DNA of 37,694 nt, taken from contig SLQZ01000062.1 of the NCBI GenBank assembly GCA_007131205.1, positions 1 to 37,694 on the forward strand, given 5' to 3'. Below, in pieces: positions 4,450 through 35,641 of this stretch. Numbering within the stretch: the stretch's first letter is position 1; each line of letters opens with the position of its first letter. This DNA comes from Candidatus Woesearchaeota archaeon. GTDB taxonomy: Archaea > Nanobdellota > Nanobdellia > Woesearchaeales > 21-14-0-10-32-9. A model generated the notes under the pieces. That model had not been told where the DNA came from. It saw only the letters and a program-made list of their open reading frames with translations, and ran no database searches. Made by a program: the position numbers and the translations under genes.

Positions 4450-5217
4450 TTATTTCTTGGCTTTGAGCTTGTAGATAAAGTAAACAGCTATTACGGTAAA
4501 TGCAAGTGAGAGGTATTGGCCAGTGCTAATTCCTAATAGTATTGCTTCACCTGCAGGGTCTCTTAGGAAGTCAAGGAAGAACCTCGTAGAGTTATACAGC
4601 AATACGAAGTACCAGAATAAGAGGCCTTCTTTTAACTTCCATGTCTTGCTTACAAAATATAGTGCTCCTGTGAGGAAGAAGTCTTTTGCAGCAGCATATA
4701 ATTGGTAGGGATGCCTGCAACCGTCGAATCCTGGGAAGACAACGCACCAAGGAGCATCACTCCTCGTACCAGGGAGCTCACCGTTGATAAAATTCGCTAT
4801 CCTTCCCAGAGCCAAAAAGAAAAAAGCAGGGAGCGCCATCAAGTCTGCTAATGAATAAAACCTTATCTTGTACTTCCTGGAAAAAAGAAGTATTGCTATT
4901 ATTGCTCCGATTAGGCCTCCGTGGAAAGACATGCCTCCGTGCCACACCATGAATAATTCCAAGGGATTTGAGAGGAGAACTCCCGGGGAATAAAAGATAA
5001 ACGTAAAGATTCTCGCTCCTAATATTACGCCTGCTAGCAGGTAAAGCATGAATACTTCAAGCTTGTCCTTGTCCATGCCCTTAATCATGCCTTTCTTTAC
5101 CCTGCTGGACATATAGAAATATATGAATAAGAAGCCGAGGAAGTACACTAGGCCATAATACCTTACTTGCAGGAATCCTAAGTCCAGCAAAACCGGGTTA
5201 ATGTTATGTATAAACAA
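4450..5217 (-). CDS. lgt: Prolipoprotein diacylglyceryl transferase (bacterial-type Lgt)
   Basis: VRYYGLVYFLGF, WHGGMSFHGGLIG, GRIANFINGELPG, HPYQLY and FLRDP motifs matching Lgt. Polytopic membrane protein. Confidence 0.8.
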   Translation of the reverse strand: MFIHNINPVLLDLGFLQVRYYGLVYFLGFLFIYFYMSSRVKKGMIKGMDKDKLEVFMLYLLAGVILGARIFTFIFYSPGVLLSNPLELFMVWHGGMSFHGGLIGAIIAILLFSRKYKIRFYSLADLMALPAFFFLALGRIANFINGELPGTRSDAPWCVVFPGFDGCRHPYQLYAAAKDFFLTGALYFVSKTWKLKEGLLFWYFVLLYNSTRFFLDFLRDPAGEAILLGISTGQYLSLAFTVIAVYFIYKLKAKK

Positions 5218-14856: not shown

Positions 14857-14903
14857 AAATCCCGAACAACTCACAAATAAACAGAAAACAGATGTGAAAA
14901 AAA

Positions 14904-15539
14904 ATGGTTTTAGCAAAAATCATCATCGGATTATTCTCAATAGCAATTCTGTACATAACCACCATTTTTTTACTGTCAAGACTATTCATACCAAACATAG
15001 GGTTTAAGAGAAAAATCAAAGAAAAACTGCCAAGAGACGCAAAGAAAAAGCTTATAGAAATAAAAAAATCCTCGAAGAACAAGAAAGAAGCCCTAAAAAA
15101 AGTAATAGACTACCAACTATCCATTTTTTACTCGGAGATGAGACAAGCCTTCCCCAGGTTCAAATTCTTATTCGAATCAAGCTTTAACAAATTATGGAAA
15201 AAGAAAGGATTCTTGCACTGCCACCAACAAAACTTTGTACTGCGAAGACTATTACTAGGAACAAAGATGTTTGAGGAGAAAGACATCAAGCTAAAGCACA
15301 CATTCTGCTACCTAAACATACACCAATACCTAAAAATAAATATAGGCAAAAAGAAAAAAGAATGGATAAACGTAGACGCGTTCGCGATGAGCTTAGGCTA
15401 CAATTTAGGAGAAGTGTTGCCTAATTTTGCTTATCCAAGCATGAAAGCACGCGGGATAAACCCGTTACGAGACCCAATAAAAAGCAAGAAAATACTCGAA
15501 AAAACCACAATGCTCTCACTATTCCTGAAAAATAAATGA
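14904..15539 (+). CDS. Membrane-anchored protein with possible transglutaminase-like (Cys-His-Asp) core
   Basis: N-terminal TM (IIIGLFSIAILYITTIFLL). Then GFLHCHQQNFVLRRLL ... NIHQYLKI ... WINVDAF, with spacing compatible with a C-H-D papain/TGase-like triad. Weak, by eye only. Confidence 0.35.
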   Translation: MVLAKIIIGLFSIAILYITTIFLLSRLFIPNIGFKRKIKEKLPRDAKKKLIEIKKSSKNKKEALKKVIDYQLSIFYSEMRQAFPRFKFLFESSFNKLWKKKGFLHCHQQNFVLRRLLLGTKMFEEKDIKLKHTFCYLNIHQYLKINIGKKKKEWINVDAFAMSLGYNLGEVLPNFAYPSMKARGINPLRDPIKSKKILEKTTMLSLFLKNK

Positions 15540-15937
15540 AAAAAAAACATGTATTGGAAGGAGAATACATAATTTACGAGTACGGAACACAAGACTATAC
15601 TGGTGAAGGATGGGCATTAGCACTCTACAAGCTGGAAGGCAATGAATTACAAGAAATATACCATCCTGTAGATAATGAGAGCGAGCCAAGCAACATAGGC
15701 GAGCAAAACATAGAAGAACTGATAAATGTTATGATAAAAAAAAATATTAGAAAAGTCTACACGGTGTTTCACCTACAAGAATTCTACAGAATCCCCAGTA
15801 ACTGGTTTAGCCTACAAGAACAAGACACAGAAGAAATAGAGTTATGGGCAGAATACAAATCCATAGAAAAAGATGGCTATGAGCACCAAAGGTTAAAAGA
15901 AAACGGAATAGAACTGCTCTTCCACGAAGAAAAATAA
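15536..15937 (+). CDS. Hypothetical acidic protein, no recognisable domain
   Basis: 133-aa ORF. ATGA overlap with the upstream gene; the stop directly abuts the downstream ATG. Confidence 0.4.
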   Translation: MKKKHVLEGEYIIYEYGTQDYTGEGWALALYKLEGNELQEIYHPVDNESEPSNIGEQNIEELINVMIKKNIRKVYTVFHLQEFYRIPSNWFSLQEQDTEEIELWAEYKSIEKDGYEHQRLKENGIELLFHEEK

Positions 15938-16303
15938 ATGAATATGAAAGCCCTATCCTTAAAACAGCCATACGCAGAACTCGCAGTAAGCGGAAAGAAA
16001 ACAATAGAATTAAGAAAATGGAATACAAGTTTCCGAGGAGAATTCTTAGTGCACGCATCAAAGCAACCAGACAAAGAAGCAATGGAAAAATTTGGCTTTA
16101 AAGAATTGCCATTAGGAGCAATCATAGGGAAAGCAGAATTGGTAAGCGTGAAGAAATATGAGAACGAAGAAGAATTCGAAAAAGACAAAGACAAGCACTT
16201 AGCCACGAAAAAATATGGTGTGTATGGATTCATACTAAGAAACGCAAAGAAAACAAAGCCAATACCCGCAAAAGGAAAACTAGGATTTTGGAAATATGAA
16301 TGA
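15938..16303 (+). CDS. ASCH (PUA-like) domain protein
   Basis: ALSLKQPYAELAVSGKKTIELRKWNTSFRGEFLVHAS...LPLGAIIGKAELV matches the ASCH N-terminal signature (SIKQPWA..I..G.K..E.R). Confidence 0.65.
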   Translation: MNMKALSLKQPYAELAVSGKKTIELRKWNTSFRGEFLVHASKQPDKEAMEKFGFKELPLGAIIGKAELVSVKKYENEEEFEKDKDKHLATKKYGVYGFILRNAKKTKPIPAKGKLGFWKYE

Positions 16304-16329
16304 ATAATAGTTTGAAGACAAAACAAAAT

Positions 16330-16527
16330 CTACGACATCATTTTAGCCAGAAAAAACCACACAACGGTAACAAAAAAAATAGCAAAAAGTGCTACCACTA
16401 ATTCCCAAGCTTTATTCTTAAACTTTCCTTCGAGCTTTTTAGAGATAAACTGACCTACTAATAGAATCATACCAGCAGTCACGCCTGCAATTACGCCCGG
16501 AAATAATGTTTCAAAAAACCCCATCAA
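16330..16527 (-). CDS. Small membrane protein (2 TM), unknown function
   Basis: 65 aa, two hydrophobic helices, co-oriented downstream of the DpnA-like methyltransferase. Confidence 0.35.
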   Translation of the reverse strand: MMGFFETLFPGVIAGVTAGMILLVGQFISKKLEGKFKNKAWELVVALFAIFFVTVVWFFLAKMMS

Positions 16528-16562
16528 GTTAGTATTAAAACTACACTTATAATTTTTGCGGA

Positions 16563-17342
16563 TTAGTTCAATGTGCTTTTCAGCCTTCTAACGCTTAACT
16601 TCAAGTAATCTTCTTCTTTATCTATGCCGATGTACTTTCTTCCGTGCATGCTTGCGACCAGTCCTGTTGTTCCTGAGCCGTTGAAAGGGTCCAAAACAAC
16701 ATCTTTTTCGTTGGTGCTAGCCAGGACTATTCTTTTTAGTAGCTCTATCGGTTTTTGTGTTGGGTGTTTGCCTGATTTCTTTTCTTGCATCGGGGTTAAA
16801 GGAATTTTCCATATACTTCGCATTTGTTTTCCTTTCGGGCTTATATCATCGTGCCATTCTTTCATTTCTTTATAATTGAAAGTGTGCTTTGCTTTCTTGT
16901 CTTTTTTAGCCCAAATAATGGTTTCATGGGCGTGGGCGAAGTATCTGCAGGAGAGGTTTGGAGGCCCGTTTGGCTTAAACCACGAGATTTCGTTTAAAAT
17001 GTGAAATCCTAATGCCTGTAACGCATGCCCTACTTTGTATATGCTATGAGGAGTGCCTGAAATCCATATTGTTCCGTTAGGTTTTAAGAGTTCTCTGCAG
17101 TGTTTTAGCCAGGAATAAGTGAATTCGTAGTCTTTCTGGAAGCCATTTGATTTATCCCAGTCTCCCTTGTTGACAGAAACCATTTTTCCTGCTTTGCATG
17201 TTATTCCGCCGTTGGATAAATTATAAGGAGGATCTGCAAATATCATGCTTACCGAATTCTTCCTGATTTTTGGCAATACTCCGAGGGAATCTCCTTTGAT
17301 TAGCATGAAATTCTTGTCTTTGAAGAATGGTTTAATAGTCAT
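16563..17342 (-). CDS. Beta-class DNA N6-adenine methyltransferase, DpnA/M.MboIB-like
   Basis: Motif IV before motif I: IFADPPYNLSNGG ... GDWDK ... NGTIWISG ... PNLSCRYF ... GKHPTQKP ... VLDPFNGSGTTG. From memory it is collinear with S. pneumoniae DpnA. Confidence 0.85.
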   Translation of the reverse strand: MTIKPFFKDKNFMLIKGDSLGVLPKIRKNSVSMIFADPPYNLSNGGITCKAGKMVSVNKGDWDKSNGFQKDYEFTYSWLKHCRELLKPNGTIWISGTPHSIYKVGHALQALGFHILNEISWFKPNGPPNLSCRYFAHAHETIIWAKKDKKAKHTFNYKEMKEWHDDISPKGKQMRSIWKIPLTPMQEKKSGKHPTQKPIELLKRIVLASTNEKDVVLDPFNGSGTTGLVASMHGRKYIGIDKEEDYLKLSVRRLKSTLN

Positions 17343-17440
17343 GTAATGCTAAGAATCATACTTGTTTATATTTGTTGTGTGGACTTGTCCAGTGCATCTT
17401 TCAGGTTAACCGGAAGATTTACGAAAAAAATGGGAAAATA

Positions 17441-17450
17441 TTTATATTTA
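17441..17450 (+). promoter_or_regulatory. TATA box (TTTATATTTA) about 26 nt upstream of ATG 17472; suggests a leaderless or short-leader transcript for the orphan ORF
   Basis: AT-rich element read directly. The spacing to the ATG matches archaeal TATA-to-TSS distance. Confidence 0.4.
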
Positions 17451-17471
17451 TTTAAAAAGGATGATACCATT

Positions 17472-18089
17472 ATGAATCGCCAGGAACTATTTGAAATTGT
17501 TAAAAATCTTGAGTTCGATAAAAAAATAAGTATTATAGAGGAGAATGGTGTTGAATTATACTTATTGAGGCCTTCTGTACTCCCTAAATCTCTTAAAAAC
17601 AAATATGATGTAAATAAAAATTTTCAGATATGGGTTAAAGAAGGGGAGCGAGAATTCAGACCGAATCATCTTCGTTTAATTATCGACTTAAATCTTAGAG
17701 TCAGGTCTAATCCTGAATTAAAAAATAAGTTACTCTTAGCAATGGACAATATTTTTTATGGGGAAGATGTTGAGAAAGAAATATCTTTGTTAAACAAGGA
17801 AAAATTCCAACATTACCTTAACCCATTGAGAATAATAGCATATATGGCCTTGCTCTTTTTGATAGAACAAGAATATAACTATACGGGAGAAAGTAAGTAC
17901 GATCCGAAAACCTTGTTTTTGCAAGGTTGGATACGGGAAAGCATTGATAGCCCAAAGGAATTAGACAACATGTGCATGAGTATAGCTAACGGGCAACCCC
18001 CAAAAGCCAAATATACTTGTAAGGAAAATAAAAAACATAAGAAATACGAAGAAAAAAGAAAAGAGTTGTGGTATCTGGAAGATCAATAA
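17472..18089 (+). CDS. Orphan protein between the two methyltransferases; candidate restriction endonuclease of unrecognised family
   Basis: 205 aa from ATG 17472; the ORF is open from 17346. No DpnII-family, HNH or GIY-YIG signature is visible. The only weak PD-(D/E)XK-like string is IIDLNLRVRSNPELK. The 3' end overlaps the Dam-like gene by 7 nt (convergent). Confidence 0.4.
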   Translation: MNRQELFEIVKNLEFDKKISIIEENGVELYLLRPSVLPKSLKNKYDVNKNFQIWVKEGEREFRPNHLRLIIDLNLRVRSNPELKNKLLLAMDNIFYGEDVEKEISLLNKEKFQHYLNPLRIIAYMALLFLIEQEYNYTGESKYDPKTLFLQGWIRESIDSPKELDNMCMSIANGQPPKAKYTCKENKKHKKYEEKRKELWYLEDQ

Positions 18090-18910
18090 TTAGTTACTAC
18101 AACCTCGTCTATTTCTCCCCTTCCTTTAGCGTCGCTGTTAATACTTCTCCTGGCTTTTACTTTCCTAATATTATATCCTTTGTACAGTTTATGGATTAGT
18201 TCGCTGTCGCTGTTGCTAAGCATTACTTTGCAGCCTTTTGCATCTAGCTTCATGAAAACTTCTGCTAATCTGACCTGGTCTTCCCGGCCAAAATCCAGGT
18301 CGGTGTAACTAGTGAAATTATTCTTTTTGAAAGGCCAATATGGAGGGTCGAGATAAACAAAGTCGCCTTTCTTAGCTGTTTCAAGGACTTTTTTGAAGTC
18401 TTGAGCTTTTGCCACAACATTTTTTAGTAAATGACTTGCTTTTTTCAGTGTTTCTTCTCTGACAATCTCAGGGTTTTTATAACTCCCTATGGGTACGTTA
18501 AATTCGTTTTTCGAGTTCACCCTAAACAATCCATTGAAACACGTCCTGTTCAAATAAAGGAGTAAAGCTGCTTTTTTCAAAGAGTCTTTTTCCTTGTTAT
18601 AAGCATTTCTAGCTTCGTAATAATAATCTTTTGAGTGATTTTTAGCATGTATTCTTAGGAGTTTTATTAGCTCTGAGAGGTTATCCCTTATCTGGACGTA
18701 TAGATTTATGAGTTCTGAGTTGTAGTCGGATAAGAAAATTTTTTTTGGATTAAATTTTTGTTTTACGTGGAAGAATACTGCTCCACCGCCTACGAATGGC
18801 TCGCGGTATACTTCTATGTTTTCTGGGTAGAACTCTTCGAATTTGGAGAGTAACTGTTTTTTACCCCCTGCCCACTTTACAAACAACGGAATCTCAACCC
18901 CCATAAACAA
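18083..18910 (-). CDS. Alpha-class DNA adenine methyltransferase, Dam/DpnM family
   Basis: KWAGGKKQLL, EPFVGGGAVFF, FNGLFRVNSKNEFNVP, GDFVYLDPPYWP, VMLSNS, VVTNY. From memory it is collinear with DpnM/Dam. Confidence 0.9.
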   Translation of the reverse strand: MFMGVEIPLFVKWAGGKKQLLSKFEEFYPENIEVYREPFVGGGAVFFHVKQKFNPKKIFLSDYNSELINLYVQIRDNLSELIKLLRIHAKNHSKDYYYEARNAYNKEKDSLKKAALLLYLNRTCFNGLFRVNSKNEFNVPIGSYKNPEIVREETLKKASHLLKNVVAKAQDFKKVLETAKKGDFVYLDPPYWPFKKNNFTSYTDLDFGREDQVRLAEVFMKLDAKGCKVMLSNSDSELIHKLYKGYNIRKVKARRSINSDAKGRGEIDEVVVTNY

Positions 18911-18973
18911 TTACTAAAAGCCTCGTAAATATAAGGTTTTTCTTTGTGGAACAAAAAAACAGAATAAGCGTAT

Positions 18974-19411
18974 TTACTTCCTTGCTTTTTCGACTTTTCC
19001 TCTTAGCAATGCGTTTAGGGATTGGTCGTTTACTTTTATGACTTGCCAGCGTACGCCTGGGATGTCTCCCTTGCTTCTGCCCATGCTTCCACCCATGCAT
19101 TCTATGACGACTTCGTCGTGCTCATCCACCATTTTCTGGGCTCCGTCACCTGGAAGGAAAGCTGTTACTTGCTTGCCGTTCTTAACAAGTTGGACACGGA
19201 CACATTTTCTCATAGCTGAGTTTGGCTGTTTTGCCTCTCTTTGAACTTTTTCAAGTACGATTCCTGAGGCTTGGCTTGAGCCTTCAAGAGGGTCTGATTT
19301 TAAGGCTAATTTAAGGACTTTCTTGGCGTACCACTTGTCTTTCTTCCTGGACTCGCTTCGCCTACTAGTAAGTTTTTTTCCTGCGTTCAATCCTGATGAT
19401 TTCTTGCTCAT
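18974..19411 (-). CDS. rps12: Ribosomal protein S12 (uS12)
   Basis: [33 protein letters not shown]. Confidence 0.95.
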
Positions 19412-19421
19412 ATTTTCACCG

Positions 19422-19841
19422 TTATATTACCTTGATTTCTTTTAATGGAAAGTATTTCCTCACGATTTCCTCGTAGTTCCTCAGGTTTTGCGCTCGGGCG
19501 CCGATCATAAGGCCTTTGGTTTTCGCGTCAGGGCCTTTAATCGTGACGATTTCGTCTTCTTCCTGCATATCAACTATTTTTAAGGGGAACATAAGGTTCC
19601 TTATAAATGTTAGCTTGTCAGGGCTGAACTCGACTATTTTAATCTTTCTATTGACTGCTCTCTCAACTTTTTCTATGTTAGACTTCTGCTTGCCAAGCGC
19701 GCGCCCCATTTCCCCGGGCTGGACAACAAAAACAATCTTGTCCTTGTTAAAAAAGCAGTCTTTTAATCCTGCACCCGTTATTTTTTCGAATAATGACATT
19801 AGGTTCAGGAGTTCAGCATCATATTTTATCTTCATTTGCAA
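19422..19841 (-). CDS. nusA: Transcription termination/antitermination factor NusA (archaeal two-KH form)
   Basis: ~139 aa. [17 protein letters not shown] and [13 protein letters not shown] are KH GXXG-type loops. Conserved position between L30e and S12. Confidence 0.85.
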
Positions 19842-19855
19842 TTAAACCCAAAAAA

Positions 19856-20119
19856 TTATTTTTTTACGCCTATTACAGATACCAGGAAAGGCTTCCCGCA
19901 AATAGTTCCAAGCTCTTCATTATTAACGTCAAGGGCGTGCACTTCTACGCCACCAATTTTCTTGTAGTATTCCAAGTCTTTCTTTGCCTCAACCTCGGCA
20001 TTTGAGGACACAAAAACCTTTGCTAACTCACCTTTCCTGAGAAGCTTTAAAGTCCTGTCCGTGCCGATAATTATTTTATCTGTGTTCAAGAGTTTTCTTA
20101 TTTCATCAATCACAATCAT
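19856..20119 (-). CDS. rpl30e: Ribosomal protein L30e (eL30)
   Basis: KIIIGTDRTLKLLRKGELAKVFVSSN ... LGTICGKPF. Conserved position after rpoA''. Confidence 0.85.
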   Translation of the reverse strand: MIVIDEIRKLLNTDKIIIGTDRTLKLLRKGELAKVFVSSNAEVEAKKDLEYYKKIGGVEVHALDVNNEELGTICGKPFLVSVIGVKK

Positions 20120-20131
20120 TCACCTTTAGCT

Positions 20132-21280
20132 TTATTTTGACTTAGTTCGAACTATTAAGCCAGGCAAGCCTGTACCTATTGGAACTGGCTGGTTCAGCAT
20201 AACGTTTTCTATGACGCTGTTCAACGGGTCAGATTCTCCTGTGAGGCCTGCGTTGATAACATGCTTGATAGGTGTCTCGAAGGAAGCCCTTGCAAGCACG
20301 GAAGGCTTCTCCTTAACAATACCATACCTGTTAATGCCCATGATCTTCCCTGACATGCACATAGCGTCTGCAACTATCATGATATGCCTGATGTCAACGT
20401 TCAATCCTTGTTCCTCGATGACTTTCATTAATTCATTTATTATGAGCTGCCTCGCTGCCTCTATGCCGAATTCTTTCTCAATCTCATATATGTTATTAGT
20501 ATATGTCCTTTCCTTGTCTACGAAGTCAAGAGACAAGACTTCTCTAAGGTTAGAGCCTGACGTTACAATCATGAACTCATCATCCTTCTTTACAGGGAGG
20601 ACTTGCTTGATTCCTTTCACGCCGTGAATATAAACATTTTTGAGCTTCTCTTTCAGCTTATAAAGCTGAATAATATCTTTGTCCTTCCCAGACTGTATTA
20701 CTGATATGGACTCGTCTTTTTCAAGCTTAAAAGAAAATCCCTTAACGTTTTTTCTCAGTGCTTCCGTAACGGATGAATGAGTAAGCTTTAGCAATTCAAG
20801 CTTATCTTTGTCAAGCACAATTTTAAGGTTTGCCTCAGAAATATTAACGATTACTTCTTTCAGGAAGTCTTTCATGGTAAGCTCTTTCAGGGATTCAGCG
20901 ATGCGCTTTATATCCTTTCCTTCGCTGTATGGCTTAACTAAGTGAATATTCATAAGCTCAGTAGAAATAGTTTTTCTCCCGTCAAGAACTTCGATAAGCC
21001 TTGGAAGGCCAGTGGTAACGTTCATCTCTGCAACCCCTGCGAAATGGAAAGTGTTCAGTGTCATCTGTGTGCCTGGCTCACCAATGCTTTCAGCGCTTAC
21101 AATCCCAACGCATTCCCCGGGAACTGCCAGCGATGAATTATACTCTGCCTCTATTGCATCCATGATTTTCTTAAGCTTCTCCTTGCTAACACTTGCAGGA
21201 AGATTCGCTTCCACTTCAGCAAGTATTGAATTCGGAATCTTATCCTCGTATTCCCTTAGCGCCTCTTTAACATCAACCAT
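20132..21280 (-). CDS. rpoA2: DNA-directed RNA polymerase subunit A'' (Rpo1C)
   Basis: [29 protein letters not shown] ... SFETP. ATG 21280 is preceded by GAGGT. The track start at 21301 is a TTG. Confidence 0.95.
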
Positions 21281-21290
21281 TTTCAGTACC

Positions 21291-23891
21291 TCATTCCTCA
21301 AAAGAATCTATTATGCCCTTAACATTTATCTTTCCTGCTTCCGTCTTTGAAACGTCTAAGCCATCTTCACCATAGTTAAACTGCACGATTTTCTTGGAAG
21401 CATCCCTAACCGTGAAATCATACTCTAGCTTTAAGTCTTGCATCGCATTTGCAAGCCTCCTGTAAAGGTAACCAGACTTAGGAGTCCTAAGAGCGGTATC
21501 CATCAGGCTATCCCTTCCGGTCATCGCCATAAAGAACATTTCGTAAGGCTTCAAGCCATACTTAAACCCGTTCCTGATGAATCCCCTGGGGACTGCGCCC
21601 AAGTCATTTTTCTTAAAGCAAGACAAAGACCTTCCCTTAAAGCCTTTTCCAATCCTTCCGCCTCGAAGGGCTTGCTGACCTACACAAGCAGCCATCTGAG
21701 CAATATTGATAGTGTTGCCTTTCGCACCTGATCGTACCATAATCATAGTATTGCTGTTCTGGGGGGATGACAACTCAACGATTTTACCCGACTCATTCCT
21801 TGCCTTGTTAAGCCTTTCCAGAATTCTGAGCTCCAAAGTTTCCTCGATGCTCCTCCCAGGAAGCCTTTCCAAAGTACCAGCGTGGAAATCCCCAATAATT
21901 TTCTTAACATCTTCATCTGCCTTATCAAGCGTCTCCGTGACTTTTTGCAATGCTTCTTCGCTTAAGTCAATATCTGAAAGCTTAGATGTAAAGCCGTACT
22001 TAAGAAGAACTTCTGCGCCCAACCCGTTAATCTTCCTCAAAAAAACAATTATTTCATCTGCGCCGTACTTCTTATGAAGGTTCCTTAATAATAATCCTGA
22101 GCCTTCCCCAAGGTTAGCAGAATCCATAACGCCTGATACAAGCTTTCCATTCGTAATCTTAACCACTGAGTCAGGGTCCTCGGGGTCCCTGTTAAAAATC
22201 CTGGACTTGCCAACAAAGCTAAAATCGTCAGGCAGGATAACAGAAAAGACTTCTTTGCCCGTAACATACTTCTTGTTCGGCAGTTTCTTGAAGTCATCTA
22301 TGCCTGCCGCGGACAATAAATCAACAGCAGCATCCCTAGTAATCTTAAAGCCTTCCCTTGTAAGAATGTAGTTGCCGGAAATGCTGTCCTGAATGCAAGC
22401 TATAATGCTCAACCCATACCTAGGGCTGATTATCTGGGTTTGAACCTGCATTAAAATTTCTGCTTCAGCCCTTGCCTCCTCTGTTTGTGGAATATGAAGG
22501 TTCATCTCATCCCCGTCGAAGTCAGCGTTGTACGGAGCACAAACAGCGGGGTTAAGCCTAAGAGTCAAGCCTGGAAGGACTTTTACGCGGTGGCACATCA
22601 TGCTCATCCTGTGAAGGCTAGGCTGCCTATTGAACAATGCAATATCACCGTCCATCAAGTGCCTCTCAACAATGAAACCCGGCTGGATTTCTTCCAGCAA
22701 CTGCTCCTTTGTCTCGTTAGTAATCCTTTTTCTCTTGCCATCAGGCCTTATAATATAATTAGATCCAGGGTATTGGTCAGAGCCTCTCTCAAGGAATCCT
22801 TTTAAGTACTCCAAATTCCACTCAGTAACCCTTTCAGGAACAGTCAATTTCCTCGCAATTACTTCAGGAACCCCGACTTCATTAATATCTACTTTTGGGT
22901 CTGGGCTTATAACTGTCCTCGCAGAAAAATTAGTCCTCTTACCAGCAAGATTCCCACGAATCCTTCCTTCCTTGTTCTTTATCCTTGCTGTTAAAGTATT
23001 CAATGGCTGCCCACTCCTATGCCTAGCAGGCGGAAGCTGGGCTACCTCGTTATCGAAAAAAGTGGTAACGTGATACTGCAACAAGTCCCATAAGTCTTCA
23101 ATAATAATCTCTGGGGCACCAGCATTAATGTTTTCAAAAAGCCTTTGGTTAATCCTTACAATATCGCCTAGCTTATGCGTAAGGTCATCTTCGCTCCTCT
23201 CCCCGCTTTCAAGGGTAATGCTAGGCCGCATCGTAACAGGTGGTATAGCAAGCACTGTTAAAACCATCCATTCAGGCCTCGCATTCTTCGGGTCAAGGCC
23301 GAAAATCTTCAGGTCTTCATCTGGAATCCTCTCAAGCCTAGCCCTGACTTCTATTGGGGAAATCCTTTTATCATTCTCAATAAAGGAAGTTGGCTTCTCA
23401 ATAGATATCTTATACTGCTTCTCCTTGCAATAAGGGCACTTATTAATAGTCCTAAGGCTTGCAATGATAAGCTTAATCTTGTCCCTTCTCTCAATCAAGC
23501 CCTGCTCCAATCCCACTTTATCCAACAAATCGCGATATTCCTTTATCTTATCCTGAGGAATAAGTATCCTGCCACAACTCCTGCACGTGCTCCTTAACAA
23601 ATCCAGCACTACATCAACGAAGCTTATATGAATAACAGGCCTTGCAAGCTCCATATATCCAAAGTGGCCTAGGCTATCCCTGAGCTTCTGGCCATCAGTC
23701 TTGCACCTCAACCCAGGATCAATAACTCCTAAGCGCACATCCATTAACCCGCCGTCAACAGGGTAGCCTTCCTTATCGTAAAGTTCGGGCGTGACAATCT
23801 TAGCCTTCGCAATGCTTTTCAAGAGCTTAGGAGATATTACCCCAAAATCTATAGACTCAATGTATTTGTATATCGCTTTTTGATTATCCAT
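21291..23891 (-). CDS. rpoA1: DNA-directed RNA polymerase subunit A' (Rpo1N)
   Basis: [12 protein letters not shown] catalytic motif, zinc-binding Cys clusters, 866 aa. Confidence 0.95.
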
Positions 23892-23902
23892 TCGATCACC
23901 TT

Positions 23903-25708
23903 CTAAAACTTGCTCTTAAGCTTGAGCTTCGGATAAATGCCAAGAGACTTGAACTCGTCAAGCAACAACTTGAATGCGTAGCTCACTTCTATATCACTCA
24001 TATCAGAGTCCTCCCCAAAAACTGGTGACATTGGCTTATTGTTTTTCCTTGCATCGTAATAGCCAACCAAGCCAGATTTTTCACAAACAGGAACAACGAC
24101 TTGATCAGAATCAAATCTTTCCTTTAACGTGAGGGATGCGCCGTGCGCAACAAAAGTGTCTTTCTCCATTTCTCCAAGCCTTAAGCCTCCTTCCTTGGCC
24201 CTTCCTTCAGTAGGCTGCCTCGTCAATAATTGTATTGGGCCTCTCGCCCTGCTGTGCAGCTTGTTTGCAACCATGTGCTTAAGCTTTAAATAATACATGT
24301 TGCCAATAAAAATCTTGACGGTGTACTGTTCCCCTGTTATGCCATTGTACATTGTTTCAGAGCCATCCTCCCTGAAGCCCATGTCCAAAAGATCCTTTCT
24401 TATGTCTGCTTCTTCTTCTGACTCAAACATAGTAGCGTCAATATACCTTCCTGCAAGGCTGCCTGTCTTGCCTGATAACAATTCCATCATATGGGAAACA
24501 GTCATCCTTGTAGGTATGCCGTGAGGATTGAAAAGTATGTCCGGCTTTAGCCCTGTTGAAGTAAAAGGAACGTCTTCCTCAGGAACCACGAGGCTTATAA
24601 CTCCTTTCTGGCCATGCCTAGAAGTAAACTTATCCCCTATTTCAGGAATTCTTTGCTCGCGAAGCCTTACCTGTACTAGCTTATTACCTTCCTCGTTCTC
24701 AGTCAAGGCTACAAAGTCAACAATTCCTTTTTCGCCGTGCTTCAAAGCCATGCTTGACTCTCTCCTTGAATCAGAGGCTAAGCTGTATTCGTCCATGCTG
24801 CTCAAAAACCTTGGAGGGCTAACCTTCCCGATGACTACGTCTCCTTCCTTAACGCCTGCTTCAGGGTAAATTATGCCATCGTCCTCCAAGAACCTGTAAT
24901 CATGCTCAGACCTATAGCCCCTGACTTCCTTGTCAGGAATAATTATTTCATCCATTAATCCACCAGAATACCTTAATTCCTCAGATATTACCGGACGGAA
25001 GTATGTCGACCTTCCAAGGCCTCTTTCTATGCTGCCTTTGTTTATGATGATAGCGTCATCCATGTTATAGCCTTTGTAAGTCAGGACTGCCACGATAACA
25101 TTCTGGCCTGAAGGGTGCTTATCATAATCTGAAACTGAATGAGTAATGCTTTGAACGATTGGGTAATGCGGGTAGTGCAACACGCTAACATCCATGTCCA
25201 TCCTGAGCAAGAAATTCGCTGCATAAAATCCGACTGCTTGCTTCTGGTTCTTCGCACCTTGGTTTAGGCGCACGCCCTGGTTGTAGTTACCGAACGGAAC
25301 CAGTGTGGTTATAAGCCCTAAAAGATCTAAGCTGCTTATCTCTAAATGTGTGTGCTCAGCAGTGATTTCTTGCTCTGTTAGTGCAACCAATGAATTTTCT
25401 TCTTCGGTCGCATCGATATACTCAATTACTCCTTGCTTTATCAGGTCTGACCATGAAATCTCCTTTTTTTCTAGTTGCTGCAAGTGCTTATCTGTAAGCA
25501 AAGGCTTGCCTTCCTTAACAACTATTAACGGCCTTGTAGTCCTGCCCTTGCTAGTCTCTATCAGTACCTTGTCTTCGTCTTCTGAGTAAGCCACGTTGAC
25601 ATAATCAGATATTTTTCCCATTCTCCTCTCAGATATTATCTGGTCAGCAAAATCTTTTGGGTTTTTCACAACTCCAATGTACTTGTTATCCATGAATACG
25701 TCTGTCAT
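23903..25708 (-). CDS. rpoB1: DNA-directed RNA polymerase subunit B' (Rpo2C, C-terminal part of split RpoB)
   Basis: GDKFTSRHGQKGV, GGLRLGEMEKD. ATGA overlap with B''. Confidence 0.95.
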   Translation of the reverse strand: MTDVFMDNKYIGVVKNPKDFADQIISERRMGKISDYVNVAYSEDEDKVLIETSKGRTTRPLIVVKEGKPLLTDKHLQQLEKKEISWSDLIKQGVIEYIDATEEENSLVALTEQEITAEHTHLEISSLDLLGLITTLVPFGNYNQGVRLNQGAKNQKQAVGFYAANFLLRMDMDVSVLHYPHYPIVQSITHSVSDYDKHPSGQNVIVAVLTYKGYNMDDAIIINKGSIERGLGRSTYFRPVISEELRYSGGLMDEIIIPDKEVRGYRSEHDYRFLEDDGIIYPEAGVKEGDVVIGKVSPPRFLSSMDEYSLASDSRRESSMALKHGEKGIVDFVALTENEEGNKLVQVRLREQRIPEIGDKFTSRHGQKGVISLVVPEEDVPFTSTGLKPDILFNPHGIPTRMTVSHMMELLSGKTGSLAGRYIDATMFESEEEADIRKDLLDMGFREDGSETMYNGITGEQYTVKIFIGNMYYLKLKHMVANKLHSRARGPIQLLTRQPTEGRAKEGGLRLGEMEKDTFVAHGASLTLKERFDSDQVVVPVCEKSGLVGYYDARKNNKPMSPVFGEDSDMSDIEVSYAFKLLLDEFKSLGIYPKLKLKSKF

Positions 25709-27219
25709 TTTGCCATCACCGGCTCAAAGCCATAATTTTTTAGCTTGCCTAACAATTCTTCTTCATCAACTGCGCGAGTAACCCTTGCCAGCAAAGCAAG
25801 GTTTTTTCTCAGCCCAATATTAGTTCCTTCTGGTGTTTCGCTCATGCAAAGCCTGCCCATGTGCGTTGGGTGCAATGCCCTAGCCTCAAAGTTCTCCTGG
25901 CTCGCGCTTAACGGGCTTATAACCCTTTGCAATGCGGAGAGCATCTGGATGTAGTTAAGCCTTTCAATCCTTTGGCTTATTCCTTTCCTGTTCCCACTCC
26001 AGTTTCCAGTGGCCATGCTACTATAAATCCTCTGGGTTAGCAGCTTCTCCCTAATTATAACTTTTATGCTTGGAAACTTGCCCCGCTTTACAATCCTTTG
26101 AAAGTTGTAAAGCAAGTCTCCTATCAATACTTTTATGTTAACCCTTAGCAAGTCTGCCAATAAATCCCCTGCCATCTTAAGCCTCTTATTAGCATAGTGA
26201 TCCTTATCAGCTTCAGGCAGTTCCTTATTGGAAACCCGTATGTATTCTTTTAAGTACTTGCAAAGGTTTTGCGCTTTAGCATTTCTGGCTTCGCTGGTTA
26301 TGCCGATATGAGGCAGTAAGTACTTGTCAAGTATTTCTTTTAGCCTTTCAATCCTTATTTCTTTTGACTGTGTAATGCCTATTTTTTTGGCAATGAAATC
26401 AAGAGCGTCATCCTCAGTTTTTATATCGACAAACTCGTAAAGGTTTATGAACACCTCTGAGCTGTTTGGCAGGTCGACGAACCTCATTATATCTTCATCT
26501 TTTGTTATTCCCAGCGCTTTTATTATTATCACAACAGGAATCCTTTTTACCCTTGTAAATGTCAAATAAAAAATTTCGTCCCTTAACTTCTCCATCTGGT
26601 GAGGTATCTTGTAAGAGCCTTGCTCAGAAAATATTTTTCCTATGTAATCACTGATGCCTGTAGCCTGGGATTCCACGAGGAATTTGTTAGGAGCCAGGTC
26701 TTCTACTGCAACAACAACTTTTTCGGTGCCGTTAATAATGAAGTAGCCGCCTGGGTCATCAGGATCTTCGCCTGCTTTAATGAGCTCTTCCCTATCCATC
26801 TTTTTCAAGTGGCAATACTTGCTCTTAAGCATTATTGGAATGCTTCCAATCTGCGTCGAAAAAGTTTCTTTCTGCATCCCATTAACATGGGCTGAAACCT
26901 CGAGGTACATAGGTGCTGAGTATGAAAGCTTTCTAAGCCTTGCCTCAGAAGGAAGCAAGTCCCTCTTAGAGCCATCAGCCTCTATTATCTCAGGCTTGGA
27001 AACAGTTATCTTATCAAGCCGAATCTTAAACTCCTCTACGTTAGTAGGAATTATTGTGGGCTCGACTTCTTTGTTCTCATAAATAATATTTTGAAGCTCC
27101 TCTTCAATGAACTTGTTGAACGCGTCTATATCTGACTGCACCAATGAGTTCTCCTCGAAATACTTTCTCAGAAGAGCCTTTGAATTAGTCATCTTAAGGT
27201 TTATCGGCTGGTTACTCAT
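25705..27219 (-). CDS. rpoB2: DNA-directed RNA polymerase subunit B'' (Rpo2N, N-terminal part of split RpoB)
   Basis: GGYFIINGTEKVVV, ETPEGTNIGL. ATG 27219 overlaps the rpoH stop. The track start at 27228 is a GTG. Confidence 0.9.
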   Translation of the reverse strand: MSNQPINLKMTNSKALLRKYFEENSLVQSDIDAFNKFIEEELQNIIYENKEVEPTIIPTNVEEFKIRLDKITVSKPEIIEADGSKRDLLPSEARLRKLSYSAPMYLEVSAHVNGMQKETFSTQIGSIPIMLKSKYCHLKKMDREELIKAGEDPDDPGGYFIINGTEKVVVAVEDLAPNKFLVESQATGISDYIGKIFSEQGSYKIPHQMEKLRDEIFYLTFTRVKRIPVVIIIKALGITKDEDIMRFVDLPNSSEVFINLYEFVDIKTEDDALDFIAKKIGITQSKEIRIERLKEILDKYLLPHIGITSEARNAKAQNLCKYLKEYIRVSNKELPEADKDHYANKRLKMAGDLLADLLRVNIKVLIGDLLYNFQRIVKRGKFPSIKVIIREKLLTQRIYSSMATGNWSGNRKGISQRIERLNYIQMLSALQRVISPLSASQENFEARALHPTHMGRLCMSETPEGTNIGLRKNLALLARVTRAVDEEELLGKLKNYGFEPVMAK

Positions 27220-27547
27220 TAATAACACCCCTGTAAAAAATGGATTCCCCTGCAGTCGGGCTTTTCCTTTTTATCATGATTACATCGTTTTCTTTTGCGT
27301 CCAAGTGCCTTATAGCGGGGTCGCTGATAAATATCTTTGGAAGCTCCTTTGGAGTAACGCTGTACTTCTTGTACAAATCATTTTTTTGTTTTTCAGATAG
27401 CTTTATGTGCTCAGGCAGCAAGCTATGGACAAGCTTTGAAGTATCTATAACTTTAGCCCTGCCCTTTTTCTTTTTTGTAACTTTCTTAACGGCTTTCCGA
27501 GAAGCAGCAGTTTTCTTTGTTTTCTGGGTTTTTTTTGCATTAGCCAT
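27212..27547 (-). CDS. rpoH: DNA-directed RNA polymerase subunit H (Rpo5) with Lys-rich N-terminal extension
   Basis: LPEHIKLSEKQKNDLYKKYSVTPKELPKIFISDPAIRHLDAKENDVIMIKRKSPTAGESIFYRGV. AGGAGGGG SD upstream. Confidence 0.85.
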   Translation of the reverse strand: MANAKKTQKTKKTAASRKAVKKVTKKKKGRAKVIDTSKLVHSLLPEHIKLSEKQKNDLYKKYSVTPKELPKIFISDPAIRHLDAKENDVIMIKRKSPTAGESIFYRGVINE

Positions 27548-27586: not shown

Positions 27587-27660
27587 TGGGTCGGACGAGA
27601 TTTGAACTCGCGACCACCTGGTTAAAAGCCAGATGCTCTACCTGGCTGAGCTACCGACCC
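27587..27660 (-). tRNA. tRNA-Lys (anticodon UUU), no intron, CCA not encoded
   Basis: Hand-folded: GGGTCGG/TA/GCTC-AGCCAGGTA-GAGC/A/TCTGG-CTTTTAA-CCAGG/TGGTC/GCGAG-TTCAAAT-CTCGT/CCGACCC/A. Confidence 0.9.
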
Positions 27661-27700
27661 GCCATCGGAATGCTCAGGCCGTATTTGGGTCTTTCTAAAA

Positions 27701-27775
27701 CGCCCTGGCCGGGATTCGAACCCGGGTCGAAGCCTCGACAGGGCTTCATGATAGGCCAGACTACACTACCAAGGC
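27701..27775 (-). tRNA. tRNA-Asp (anticodon GUC), no intron
   Basis: Hand-folded: GCCTTGG acceptor pairs with CCAGGGC. Anticodon arm AAGCC-CTGTCGA-GGCTT. T arm CCGGG-TTCGAAT-CCCGG. Confidence 0.85.
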
Positions 27776-27953
27776 ATTGCGAAGGGATAACTGGAAGGTT
27801 TTTCCTGATTGAACATTAAAGAAAAACTTTGCTTTCCCATTTTGCGAATAATACCCTAATGTGCACGGCGCTGAACATTCCACGGAGTTTTGGTGAAACT
27901 CGGTTGATTTATAAACCTTACGGTGGTGTTTCCTTGTTTTGAGAGCGGGTGAA

Positions 27954-32032: not shown

Positions 32033-33268
32033 TTAATATATCCGGCTATCCCTTTTTATTGCGTTCATAGGCTCTAATACTTCCTCAAGTGTTTCTGCGA
32101 GTAGAAGGGAATGGTTCTTTAAATGGTCTTTTTTTCGCTGCTCATTCCTTCTCCTGATGTAATCAGTGTCATGCCTTAAGGCGCCGTTGTTCATAATTTC
32201 GTACATTTCGGGAGATTGTATTATTGTCTCGAAGCGCCCTTTTTCAACGTAGTGGTCTATCCATATTCCTGCTTTTAGGAATTCACGCTCTTCTTCGGTA
32301 GGAGGCCTTTTCCTGTTTCTTATGGCCTTATCCATTTTCTGCATTTCCTTTACCATGTTTCTTAATTGTTTTAAGGACATATCTTTTGTTAAGGGCCCTT
32401 TGTAGTCTACAATGAATGGCTTTTTTTCGCTTTCTTCGCTTAGCATGTTGGTTTCTTCAAGCGCAATGTATATGTCTTCTAACGAGACTATGTTTTGCAT
32501 GCCTTGGGTGTCATATGCGAGGTCTTTCCTTACCCCTGTGAACCAGTCCACTACTTTTTCTCGTTCCCTTTTAGATGCTTTAACTCTTGATATGAGAATA
32601 GCTTTAGGGGATTCATAGCTTGTTTCGTAGAATTTGAACATATTTTTTGCGTATAATAATTCTATAGTGTCATCTTCTTTCCAGTTCTTGAAATTTGGGA
32701 GGTATCTTCTTGGATTGCCTCTTATTATTTGCTGTATAGCTTTTTCGAGTAGGAAGCCTTCTGTTTCGGTTGTTTCTTCTCCAACTTCCCCTGTTGCATG
32801 ATTATGGGCTTTTACTTCTAGGAATGGCTTGTATTTGAATTCGTTATGCCTTTGCTCGAGTTGGCATATTCTTTTTTCCGTGTATTTTTTAAGGAATTCT
32901 TCATAGAATTGCAATGAATCATTATATTCTTTAACAAAATTATTAATTCTTTCATAGCTTATCCCTTTTTCAGCGCTGAACAGGTCGTTTATTACCCTGG
33001 CTTCGTACTCGTCTGATTTCCTCCTGAAAACTTCTAGAATTTCTTCCCTTTCGTTCTTGTGAAGCTTTATTTTTGGCTGTGGGCCTTTGGATTCTTCAAA
33101 TAATATTTTGTAGAGGTCTTTTAAGGGAAGTTTTTCGTAGTCTTTTTCTACTCTATTGGAAGAGCCTGCTGTTTTTTTGTGGCCTTTGAGCAGGTATTTG
33201 TATTCTTTTCTTATATCGTTTATTTTTTCCCTGAAGCTTAAGGCTTCTGTGTATAAATGGTCAAACAT
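32033..33268 (-). CDS. Hypothetical protein (411 aa, K/E-rich, probably largely helical), no recognisable domain
   Basis: Long uninterrupted ORF with no competing frame. No motif recognised. Confidence 0.5.
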   Translation of the reverse strand: MFDHLYTEALSFREKINDIRKEYKYLLKGHKKTAGSSNRVEKDYEKLPLKDLYKILFEESKGPQPKIKLHKNEREEILEVFRRKSDEYEARVINDLFSAEKGISYERINNFVKEYNDSLQFYEEFLKKYTEKRICQLEQRHNEFKYKPFLEVKAHNHATGEVGEETTETEGFLLEKAIQQIIRGNPRRYLPNFKNWKEDDTIELLYAKNMFKFYETSYESPKAILISRVKASKREREKVVDWFTGVRKDLAYDTQGMQNIVSLEDIYIALEETNMLSEESEKKPFIVDYKGPLTKDMSLKQLRNMVKEMQKMDKAIRNRKRPPTEEEREFLKAGIWIDHYVEKGRFETIIQSPEMYEIMNNGALRHDTDYIRRRNEQRKKDHLKNHSLLLAETLEEVLEPMNAIKRDSRIY

Positions 33269-33670: not shown

Positions 33671-35641
33671 ATGATTCTGGGAAAGATCACAGGAAAAACC
33701 ACCACGAACGAATTCAGGTTCGTAGCAGAAAAAGAGACAAGGAAATTCGAATACCTACAAGTATACCACGAAGTATACGAATACGTTCTCTGCCAGGTAG
33801 TCGAGATAGAAAAGCAAGAGCAGGAAACAATAGCGTATTGCCAAGCAATAGGGTACAAGGACAATGGCCGGGTAAAAAAGCCAAGGATACCCTTCACGCC
33901 AGGCACAGAAGTATTAGAAGCTGAAAACGAATTCATAAGAAGCATAATAAGCCTGGAAAAAACAGGGGAGCCAGCATACATTGGCAAGCTTGACGGGAAA
34001 GACGTGGATGTATTCCTAGACCTTAACAAGGTGCTTTCAATGCACTTAGCTGTACTAGCAAAATCGGGGAGTGGAAAATCATACGCGGTAGGAGTATTGC
34101 TTGAGGAGATAATCAGCAGGAAAATCCCTGTAATAGTCATTGACCCCCATGGAGAGTATTCCTCAATTAAATACAGAAATGAAGAAAAATATGATGTTGA
34201 AAGACTAAAGCTGGCAGGGCTCAGCCCGGAAGGCTACAGAGTGGAAGAATACGGGGACACAAGCATATTGCCGGATACTAAGCCGTTAAGGCTGGGCAAC
34301 CCGTTAAGCCAAGACGAATTAATGCATTTGATACCGGGAAAGCTAAGCAACAGCCAAACAGCGGTATTGTACAGCAGCCTGAAACACGCGTCAGACTTCG
34401 AATCCCTACTCCTTGCGCTTGAGCAAGAGGAAAGCAGCGTAAAATACAGCATTATAAGCATGGTAGAATACATAAAGAGCACAGGGGTATTCTCAAGAAA
34501 CCCGACGCCTATCCAGGAATACCTAAAGCCGGGAAGCTGCACAATCATAAACCTGAAAGGAATGAGCCCGGATGTTCAAGAAGTAATTGTTTACAAGCTA
34601 AGCAAAGACTTGTTCGAGGCAAGGAAGAAGAGCCAAGCACCCCCTTTCTTCTTAGTTATAGAAGAAGCCCATAATTACTGCCCTGAGCGAAGCTTTGGCG
34701 AGACAAAGGCAAGCAAAATACTGCGAAATATCGCTTCCGAGGGAAGAAAGTTTGGATTAGGCTTATGCGCTATAAGCCAAAGGCCTGCAAGGGTTGACAA
34801 GTCAGTGCTAAGCCAATGCAGCACGCAAATATTATTAAAAGTTACAAACCCTAACGACGTGAAAGCAATAAGCAGCTCGGTTGAGGGAATAACAAGCCAT
34901 GCAGAAAGAGAGCTTCAAAACCTGCCAATAGGGAATGCGATGATTACAGGCATCACTGATGTCCCTTTGCTGGTGAACGTGAGGCCAAGGAAGAGCACTC
35001 ACGGCGGAAAAACCCATGGGATGCTGGAAGAAAAGAATTTCTTGGAGCAAGCGGAAGAATTCGGCGAAGAAGACCTTATCGGAATAATAAAGCCGAACAT
35101 ATCCCCAAAAGACATAATGCTTATGTCTGAAAAGCCAATTGAAAAAATCAGGGTAATCCTAAGGCCTTGCGTACTGGCAGTCTGCGAGGACGGCAACAAA
35201 GAATACAAGCTGCTAATAGACATAAACAGGAAAGGAATTATAACTGATAAGGAAACAGGCTCTGTGAAAAAAATACCTTTCATTAAACAGCTCTCACAAG
35301 GCGAAATAAGCATTTTAAGGCATGGGTTTAAGAAAGGCTCTTTCACTCATGAGCAGGCAACAAGCGTATTAGGCAGGGACGCGCATGCTGAGCTGGAAGG
35401 CCTTGCTGGAAAAGGGCATGTTGAAAAAAAGGGAGGAACATACTCCGTGTCAGATAAGTACGTGTTTTCAAAGCTTTCAAAACATGAGACTCACGAAAAA
35501 ATATCTTATGAGAAAATCGGGTATGATGAAAAAGAAGATGAGCAAGAGGATGAAGAGCTATTAAAAAACCTTGGGGCCCTTACAAGGATAAAAGAAAAAA
35601 ATCGCTGTTTCCTAGTTGTATATGAGCCTGATTATAAATGA
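33671..35641 (+). CDS. HerA/DUF87-family (FtsK-HerA superfamily) P-loop ATPase with C-terminal ~200-aa extension containing a winged-helix-like segment
   Basis: N-terminal HAS-barrel-like region, Walker A LAKSGSGKSYAVG, Walker B FFLVIEEAHNY, CAISQRP. The C-terminal LSQGEISILRHGFKKGSFTHEQATSVLGRDAHAELEGLAGKGHVEKKGGTYSV resembles a wHTH. Confidence 0.75.
   Translation: MILGKITGKTTTNEFRFVAEKETRKFEYLQVYHEVYEYVLCQVVEIEKQEQETIAYCQAIGYKDNGRVKKPRIPFTPGTEVLEAENEFIRSIISLEKTGEPAYIGKLDGKDVDVFLDLNKVLSMHLAVLAKSGSGKSYAVGVLLEEIISRKIPVIVIDPHGEYSSIKYRNEEKYDVERLKLAGLSPEGYRVEEYGDTSILPDTKPLRLGNPLSQDELMHLIPGKLSNSQTAVLYSSLKHASDFESLLLALEQEESSVKYSIISMVEYIKSTGVFSRNPTPIQEYLKPGSCTIINLKGMSPDVQEVIVYKLSKDLFEARKKSQAPPFFLVIEEAHNYCPERSFGETKASKILRNIASEGRKFGLGLCAISQRPARVDKSVLSQCSTQILLKVTNPNDVKAISSSVEGITSHAERELQNLPIGNAMITGITDVPLLVNVRPRKSTHGGKTHGMLEEKNFLEQAEEFGEEDLIGIIKPNISPKDIMLMSEKPIEKIRVILRPCVLAVCEDGNKEYKLLIDINRKGIITDKETGSVKKIPFIKQLSQGEISILRHGFKKGSFTHEQATSVLGRDAHAELEGLAGKGHVEKKGGTYSVSDKYVFSKLSKHETHEKISYEKIGYDEKEDEQEDEELLKNLGALTRIKEKNRCFLVVYEPDYK

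Follow-up and report, generated by a model that had tools for sequence, protein, structure and literature searches.

A putative GATC restriction-modification cassette in a woesearchaeal contig and its candidate restriction protein, a member of an uncharacterised family

Contig SLQZ01000062.1 of a Candidatus Woesearchaeota archaeon (assembly GCA_007131205.1) was analysed over positions 1 to 37,694, and this whole stretch of 37,694 nucleotides (nt) is referred to below as the window. Between positions 16563 and 18910 it carries a cassette in which two genes for DNA methylases, M1 and M2, flank a gene whose product of 205 amino acids (aa) we call X. We propose that the cassette is a horizontally acquired Type II restriction-modification module directed at GATC, with a restriction component, X, that comes from a new family. 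We put the probability of this reading at about 0.6; it is held at that level because X carries no nuclease signature. According to the proposal, the DpnM-like M1 and the DpnA-like M2 would independently methylate host GATC at the N6 position of adenine, while X would attack unmethylated GATC as the restriction component. The cassette is most aptly described as a pair of methylases, one DpnM-like and one DpnA-like, together with a candidate restriction protein whose family is uncharacterised and whose predicted fold has no match. Its genes, with the open reading frames (ORFs) as listed and the middle gene also as refined, are the following.

16563-17342, minus strand: M2, beta-class methylase ORF, 259 aa as listed
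17346-18089, plus strand: middle ORF, 247 aa as listed
17472-18089, plus strand: X, the refined middle gene, 205 aa
18083-18910, minus strand: M1, Dam-like ORF, 275 aa as listed

The start of X was placed at the ATG at 17472 on the basis of its homologues and public gene calls. M1 most likely begins at the ATG at 18904 and would then comprise 273 aa, as called in other assemblies of the same organism. The X gene is divergent from the M2 gene and convergent with the M1 gene (<M2 X> <M1), and its 3' end overlaps the 3' end of M1 by 7 bp (18083-18089). A first-pass annotation, made from the letters of the window and a list of its ORFs, had reported the span of the cassette and the reading frames as listed, with both methylases on the minus strand and the middle gene on the plus strand, and all of this is borne out. 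The motifs it quoted are likewise present in the translations: KWAGGK, EPFVGGGAV, FNGLFRVNSKNEFNVP, DPPYWP, VMLSNS and VVTNY in the 275-aa protein, and FADPPYNLSNGG, GDWDK, NLSCRYF, GKHPTQKP and FNGSGTTG in the 259-aa protein, where DPPY precedes the FxGxG motif.

M1 matches PF02086 with an E-value of 6.7e-67 and scores 309.8 bits on TIGR00571 (cutoff 114.85). Its best match in the PDB is pneumococcal DpnM (2dpm, E 4.5e-74), with E. coli Dam weaker (E 7e-43), and it is 47% identical to M.LlaDCHIA of plasmid pSRQ700. In E. coli Dam, GATC is read by R124 at the fourth base pair, L122 and P134 at the third, and K9 and Y138 at the first, with further contributions from Y119 and N120 (PMC4417163). 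Alignment places K9, Y119, N120, L122, R124, P134 and Y138 of that enzyme opposite K12, F125, N126, L128, R130, P140 and Y144 of M1. The GATC-reading residues are thus conserved in M1, and the sole exchange, of Y119 for phenylalanine, is the one also seen in DpnM. Judged from its sequence, M1 is an alpha-class N6-adenine methylase of the Dam/DpnM-like (D12/Dam) family, and the Dam/DpnM identity first given to the 275-aa protein stands.

M2 matches PF01555 (E 1.2e-62). Its best match among annotated plasmids is M.LlaDCHIB of pSRQ700, at 55% identity over 255 aa (291 bits, E 3e-104), whereas CcrM-type genes reach about 220 bits at 42-47% identity, with the CcrM of S. meliloti at about 44%. In a neighbour-joining tree M2 falls inside a broad group of X-linked beta-class methylases that is shared with the DpnA-like genes of DpnII-type systems; the DpnA-like genes in this tree came from Lactococcus, Staphylococcus and Lactiplantibacillus plasmids, and a single CcrM served as the outgroup, so the tree speaks to relative distance only. 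By its sequence, M2 is a beta-class N6-adenine DNA methylase of the DpnA/M.LlaDCHIB type, which agrees with the DpnA-like identity proposed earlier for the 259-aa protein. A beta-class methylase match of 53% identity was also noted in N. gonorrhoeae, in an unannotated record where the ORF is interrupted. Pneumococcal DpnA methylates single-stranded DNA (PMC3573125).

The target of the cassette might instead be a sequence other than GATC, either because M2 is a GANTC methylase of the CcrM/HinfI type or because each methylase modifies one strand of an asymmetric (Type IIS) site. Type IIS systems often have two methylases, and CcrM supplies both the best solved-structure match of M2 (its catalytic domain, E 1.8e-60) and the best NCBIfam model (NF050803). 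The structural match arises because DpnA, to our knowledge, has no solved structure. Against the model M2 scores 257.4 bits where the cutoff is 830, and the alignment covers only model positions 6-249 of 350. The M2 catalytic domain is of the same beta-class type as CcrM and M.HinfI, but M2 ends at residue 259 without the C-terminal DNA-binding domain of CcrM; it also lies nearer to the DpnA-type enzymes, and is linked to a GATC-type Dam enzyme and to X. We consider a target other than GATC highly improbable, and two further observations given below, on the methylase partners of X and on GANTC counts, also speak against it.

X belongs to an uncharacterised family, but it is a genuine protein with a wide distribution and strong conservation. 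It has no match in Pfam, for which all 30 aligned members were scanned, or in NCBIfam, the PADLOC restriction-enzyme models and PHROGs. Searches of PDB sequences, made with X alone and as a profile, yielded nothing beyond matches at chance level (E about 1), to the C-terminal domain of RNA polymerase alpha. At E <= 1e-3 there are 670 homologues, of which the best 120 are 59-69% identical, and an exhaustive profile search yielded 110 clusters at the 50% identity level. The RefSeq label for X in the cultured Haloimpatiens lingqiaonensis (KCTC 15321; WP_138207662.1), H. massiliensis and Clostridium sp. KNHs214 is 'hypothetical protein', and no description of the X family or of GATC systems of DPANN archaea was found in the literature. 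Among family members down to 22% identity, E132 and Q133 are invariant, P64, H66 and L73 nearly so, and D72 is mostly retained; all six are present in the window protein. If X is a nuclease, its active site would most likely comprise H66, D72, E132 and Q133.

A confident AlphaFold (AF2) model of X built on 30 homologues has a predicted local distance difference test score (pLDDT) of 91 and a predicted template modelling score (pTM) of 0.89. It predicts an N-terminal alpha/beta part (residues 1-62) followed by a helical part (66-172). Comparison of the model with the PDB by Foldseek returned no significant match; the best E-value was 0.48, and the SH2-domain and RnlA matches in that list are not credible. 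Among viral models there was one borderline match, to the uncharacterised 198-aa protein A0A2L1IVY4 of Streptomyces phage BillNye (model of 17472-18086; E 9.8e-4, template modelling score 0.52, 9% identity). This is the only structural neighbour with E < 0.001, and the modelled likeness is not informative. Nor was any sequence or structural similarity found between X and the described nuclease families (PD-(D/E)XK, HNH, GIY-YIG, phospholipase D (PLD) and half-pipe). Of the motifs that had been guessed in X, namely PD-(D/E)XK, HNH/beta-beta-alpha-Me, GIY-YIG, PLD HxK and HEPN Rx4-6H, none survives alignment of divergent members.

A scan of one genome per species gave 80 loci in which X is 51-68% identical to the window protein. 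Within DPANN these lie in Woesearchaeota, Pacearchaeota, Micrarchaeota, Aenigmarchaeota, Iainarchaeum and Altiarchaeota; in other archaea, in Methanosarcinales, Methanoperedens, Methanocella, Thermoplasmata and one Heimdallarchaeota metagenome-assembled genome; and in bacteria, in Clostridia, Halanaerobiales, Bacteroidota, Ignavibacteria, Omnitrophota and others. A patchy spread across domains at this level of identity is the pattern that a horizontally mobile gene would leave. A tblastn search of plasmid and phage collections with X found no match.

The link between X and methylases is close to universal. In tblastn searches with the window methylases and a third methylase type, one to three methylase genes were found within 2.5 kb of X in 76 of the 80 species-level loci; in the remaining four the end of the contig cuts the locus short. 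The partners belong to three unrelated types (D12, DpnA-like beta and permuted PF01555), which occur singly or in combination; that one gene pairs with such different methylases is a classic signature of a restriction gene. A divergent X homologue of about 30% identity again adjoins the permuted type. The commonest layouts are X> <betaMT, where betaMT is a beta-class methylase (23 loci), X> <D12 (14 loci) and <betaMT X> <D12. The last is the layout of the window; it occurs in 11 other species-level loci and is the commonest three-gene form. X occurs with the Dam-like methylase alone or with the beta methylase alone, so that neither is one half of an asymmetric system and the two are redundant as partners of X; this tells against a Type IIS site.

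These comparisons also bear on the orientation of the cassette, which the first-pass annotation had called non-canonical. That description is apt in that the genes differ from the co-oriented DpnII and LlaDCHI operons. It does not mark the locus as an oddity: of 56 D12 or beta methylase genes downstream of X, 53 are convergent with it, and such an orientation is therefore the norm for the X family. The third methylase type is a circularly permuted PF01555 protein with an ATHPPY motif. It stands beside X in about 20 loci, sometimes as the only methylase; examples are L065:6854-7810, L059:7104-8504, L060:6626-8227 and L092:615-1538. It occurs together with both a Dam-like and a DpnA-like methylase, making three, in L032, L034, L035, L051, L054 and L058.

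A bolder proposal, to which we give even odds, is that X would found a GATC restriction-enzyme family with an unprecedented fold and active site (P-x-H...D and E-Q, set in helices), spread by horizontal transfer among DPANN, further anaerobic archaea and several phyla of bacteria, and able to take any of three unrelated GATC methylase types as its partner.

That GATC is the target is also suggested by base composition. The ratio of observed to expected GATC, which the first-pass annotation had proposed as a check, was computed for the window: 30 sites are observed and 92 expected under a Markov model, a ratio of 0.33, and this depletion is not specific to cassette activity. GATC is the most depleted of the 136 strand-symmetric 4-mers in the window, the next lowest ratio being 0.72. 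GANTC is barely reduced (117 observed, 125 expected) whereas GATC is strongly depleted, a further point against a CcrM-like specificity of M2. When the 80 loci are grouped by their methylases, GATC comes out in each class as the 4-bp palindrome with the strongest depletion, with ratios of 0.58 where both methylases are present, 0.61 with D12 only, 0.66 with the beta methylase only, and 0.35 where there is the third type only or the locus is truncated by the contig. Depletion in every class supports GATC as the target whatever the methylase partner. GATC avoidance is very strong in more distant relatives of the window organism (L107-L124), with 129 sites observed against 358 expected, and CTAG, ACGT and TCGA are depleted as well, which suggests that restriction pressure on these archaea is both heavy and diverse.

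Several findings weigh against a restriction role for X. The conserved residues lie in predicted helices, at odds with PD-(D/E)XK, and neither a nuclease fold nor a nuclease motif can be recognised; X is also conserved unusually well for a restriction enzyme. The GATC depletion has a counterpart in the control: in the rpo-rps12 region of relatives that lack the cassette there, the ratio is 0.67 in the closest set and 0.36 in the more distant one. The depletion is thus lineage-wide and no proof of cassette activity, although it fits widespread GATC restriction pressure. Finally, clustering of the neighbourhoods of 81 X loci showed another nuclease or nuclease-like gene in 18, so that X could be an accessory protein. 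A DpnII-family gene (PF04556, E 1.7e-97 in L034) is present in nine, a single-domain MutH/Sau3AI-like gene lies directly upstream of X in five, and an ORF of 176-186 aa with a D..EVK motif lies directly downstream in four. This last protein, with a D..(I/V)EVK motif that resembles PD-(D/E)XK, has no Pfam match, and its gene overlaps the X stop codon (L009:2321-2881, L028:6624-7157, L056:3407-3937, L063:6623-7150).

These neighbours give substance to an alternative in which the cassette does not restrict DNA at all. The methylases would be an orphan epigenetic pair and X a non-nuclease accessory, for instance a binder of GATC or N6-methylated GATC or a regulator, which sometimes stands beside real endonucleases. 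Some of the co-occurring nuclease genes form apparent operons with X, and two loci (L049 and L078) share the window layout except that a DpnII-family gene separates X from the Dam-like gene; the window cassette could thus descend from such an arrangement by loss of the real endonuclease. Orphan Dam-like methylases are, moreover, frequent in archaea (PMC10609329). On the other side, the canonical DpnII-type systems of Lactococcus, Staphylococcus and Lactiplantibacillus plasmids function with no X gene, and the plasmid and phage collections searched contained no X. In most loci no other nuclease gene is present, X being the only conserved non-methylase gene in about 63 of the 81. A role as regulator is unlikely in view of the separate winged-helix regulators that adjoin X in some loci: in four, the start of X is overlapped by a winged-helix gene (84-94 aa), an arrangement known from controller (C) genes, which precede restriction genes in this way. 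We also know of no precedent for a mobile module of methylases plus reader that spans two domains of life. On balance we regard an accessory role for X as unlikely.

For the loci with several nucleases we favour a different explanation, namely that systems of the same specificity may stack, since a genome methylated at GATC tolerates further GATC endonucleases. We favour stacking because about 63 of the 81 loci offer no other candidate and canonical plasmid DpnII systems do without X, and because of the separate regulators beside X. A weaker reason is that X is disrupted in two of the nine loci with a DpnII-family gene, as against one or two of the other 72, which weakly suggests redundancy of function. 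L034 reads as a DpnII-type operon beside a pair formed by a permuted methylase and X. Islands that combine X with a DpnII-family endonuclease or a single-domain MutH/Sau3AI-like protein and two or three methylases (L034, L035, L049, L051, L078, L030, L083, L086, L077; L032, L054, L058, L062, L087) are worth study for how isospecific systems accumulate.

The five loci in which X adjoins a single-domain MutH-like protein also raise the thought that X is a nuclease of a non-classical kind, either a functional counterpart of MutH that nicks one particular strand of hemimethylated or unmethylated GATC sites, or a 'restriction glycosylase' that excises bases as R.PabI does. The predicted fold, which is largely helical and unmatched, and the conserved H, D, E and Q residues in place of a standard nuclease motif would suit such an enzyme. 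Foldseek, however, found no likeness of X to MutH, R.PabI or any glycosylase, neighbourhood clustering revealed no linkage to MutS or MutL, and a mobile distribution tied to methylases fits defence better than repair. We judge this improbable, and retain X as a candidate restriction enzyme.

The nearest known systems are DpnII, LlaDCHI and MboI, represented by dpnM-dpnA-dpnB of S. pneumoniae and by pSRQ700 of L. lactis. Like the window, they pair a DpnM-like alpha with a DpnA-like beta methylase, and their target, GATC, is likely the same. Their third gene, a PF04556 endonuclease, is unrelated to X: aligned with R.LlaDCHI by hhalign, X reaches a probability of 0.4%, it has no PF04556 match, and a tblastn search of the whole window with three DpnII-family enzymes returned nothing at E <= 1. 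The reference plasmids have the co-oriented order M1> M2> R> (R being the restriction gene) where the window has <M2 X> <M1, and in the comparative loci either methylase alone can accompany X, unlike the paired set of these systems. The first-pass annotation had named the cassette a DpnII-type double-methyltransferase cassette; the methylase pairing holds up well, but the third gene does not belong. As it has neither a DpnII-family endonuclease nor a co-oriented operon, the window cassette is not a member of the DpnII/LlaDCHI type.

Several unrelated families of GATC endonuclease are already known (MboI/DpnII, Sau3AI and CviAI), and Sau3AI/MutH and CviAI have been assigned or predicted to the PD-(D/E)XK fold (Orlowski and Bujnicki 2008, PMC2441816). 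They are precedents for the independent evolution of GATC cleavage, to which X would add a further lineage. X resembles MutH/Sau3AI in neither sequence nor fold and lacks a PD-(D/E)XK motif, and it is probably distinct from CviAI too. In gene layout the X loci recall Type II systems with controller proteins, such as PvuII and Esp1396I, whose genes are convergent or divergent. Those systems have a C gene, to which the winged-helix gene overlapping the start of X in the four related loci may be compared; the window has no winged-helix regulator gene, and in the 129 bp upstream of X there is nothing more than A/T boxes that resemble promoters.

The cassette lies in an archaeal contig, beside a minus-strand block (18974-27547) of rpoH, rpoB''/B', rpoA'/A'', rpl30e, nusA and rps12; elsewhere the window holds many ribosomal protein genes, ftsZ, spt5 and aIF5B. 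From about 14.5 to 18.9 kb the GC content drops to 0.35-0.37, while the flanking DNA has 0.40-0.45. The nearest relatives (L099, L100, L101 and L121, whose NusA is 68-76% identical) have roughly 10-145 bp between rps12 and the convergent rsmB that follows it. These two genes are 4.1 kb apart in the window, which places the cassette within an insertion at a site that varies. A search for direct or inverted repeats flanking the insertion gave nothing convincing. The insertion, the four small genes that it carries besides the cassette, and the promoter-like elements of the cassette genes are as follows.

14857-18973: low-GC insertion of 4.1 kb that separates rsmB from rps12 and carries the cassette and four small genes
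14904-15539: ORF of 211 aa without a family match, overlapping the 133-aa ORF by 4 bp
15536-15937: ORF of 133 aa without a family match
15938-16303: ASCH-domain gene (PF04266; PHROG 3193, E 1e-36)
16330-16527: gene for a membrane protein of 65 aa
17343-17471: divergent intergenic region of 129 bp, read from the sequence
17365-17373: TATA-like box on the beta methylase side
17441-17448: TATA-like box on the X side
18911-18973, minus strand: spacer that separates the Dam-like gene from the rps12 stop and contains the TATA-like box TTATATTT (18927-18934)

All three cassette genes have a box resembling TTTATATT 23-31 nt upstream of their ATG. Set in A/T-rich spacers, these boxes suggest separate archaeal promoters and leaderless mRNAs. 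Each cassette gene would then have its own archaeal-type promoter, with X and the Dam-like gene converging.

Some further features of the window and its relatives were noted. A homologue of the 211-aa ORF occurs in L102, where it follows rps12 at a distance of about 1.5 kb and is encoded on the other strand. In most archaea rps12 is followed by rps7 and the EF-2 gene; in this lineage (18974-19411 in the window; L099-L124) it is not, and a convergent rsmB-like gene follows in the closest relatives. Positions 4450-5217 encode a prolipoprotein diacylglyceryl transferase, Lgt (PF01790, E 3.5e-60), typically a bacterial enzyme, here on an archaeal contig. At 187-2371 a gene for a MoxR-type AAA+ ATPase overlaps the gene that follows it, which encodes a VWA/DUF58-domain protein. 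The gene of a HerA-like (DUF87) ATPase (33671-35641, 656 aa) adjoins an opposite-strand ORF of 411 aa without a family match (32033-33268), and genes for tRNA-Lys(TTT) and tRNA-Asp(GTC) lie on the minus strand at 27587-27776, just upstream of rpoH.

Many predicted restriction enzymes have no fold assignment, and a further family of GATC endonucleases would be a solid but not startling addition. If X is a restriction enzyme, it represents another independent solution to the recognition and cleavage of GATC, with a fold not found among solved structures, and would be of interest to enzymologists, structural biologists and possibly makers of molecular-biology reagents. The presence of X in cultured Clostridia (Haloimpatiens species and Clostridium sp. 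KNHs214) makes the idea directly testable. Even if X is not a nuclease, it would still be an unexplained and highly conserved protein tied to GATC methylation. If the proposal is correct, an active GATC barrier would exist in many DPANN and other uncultured archaea, which would bear on how small-genome symbionts exchange DNA with their hosts and resist viruses, and would help to explain the strong avoidance of GATC in this lineage.

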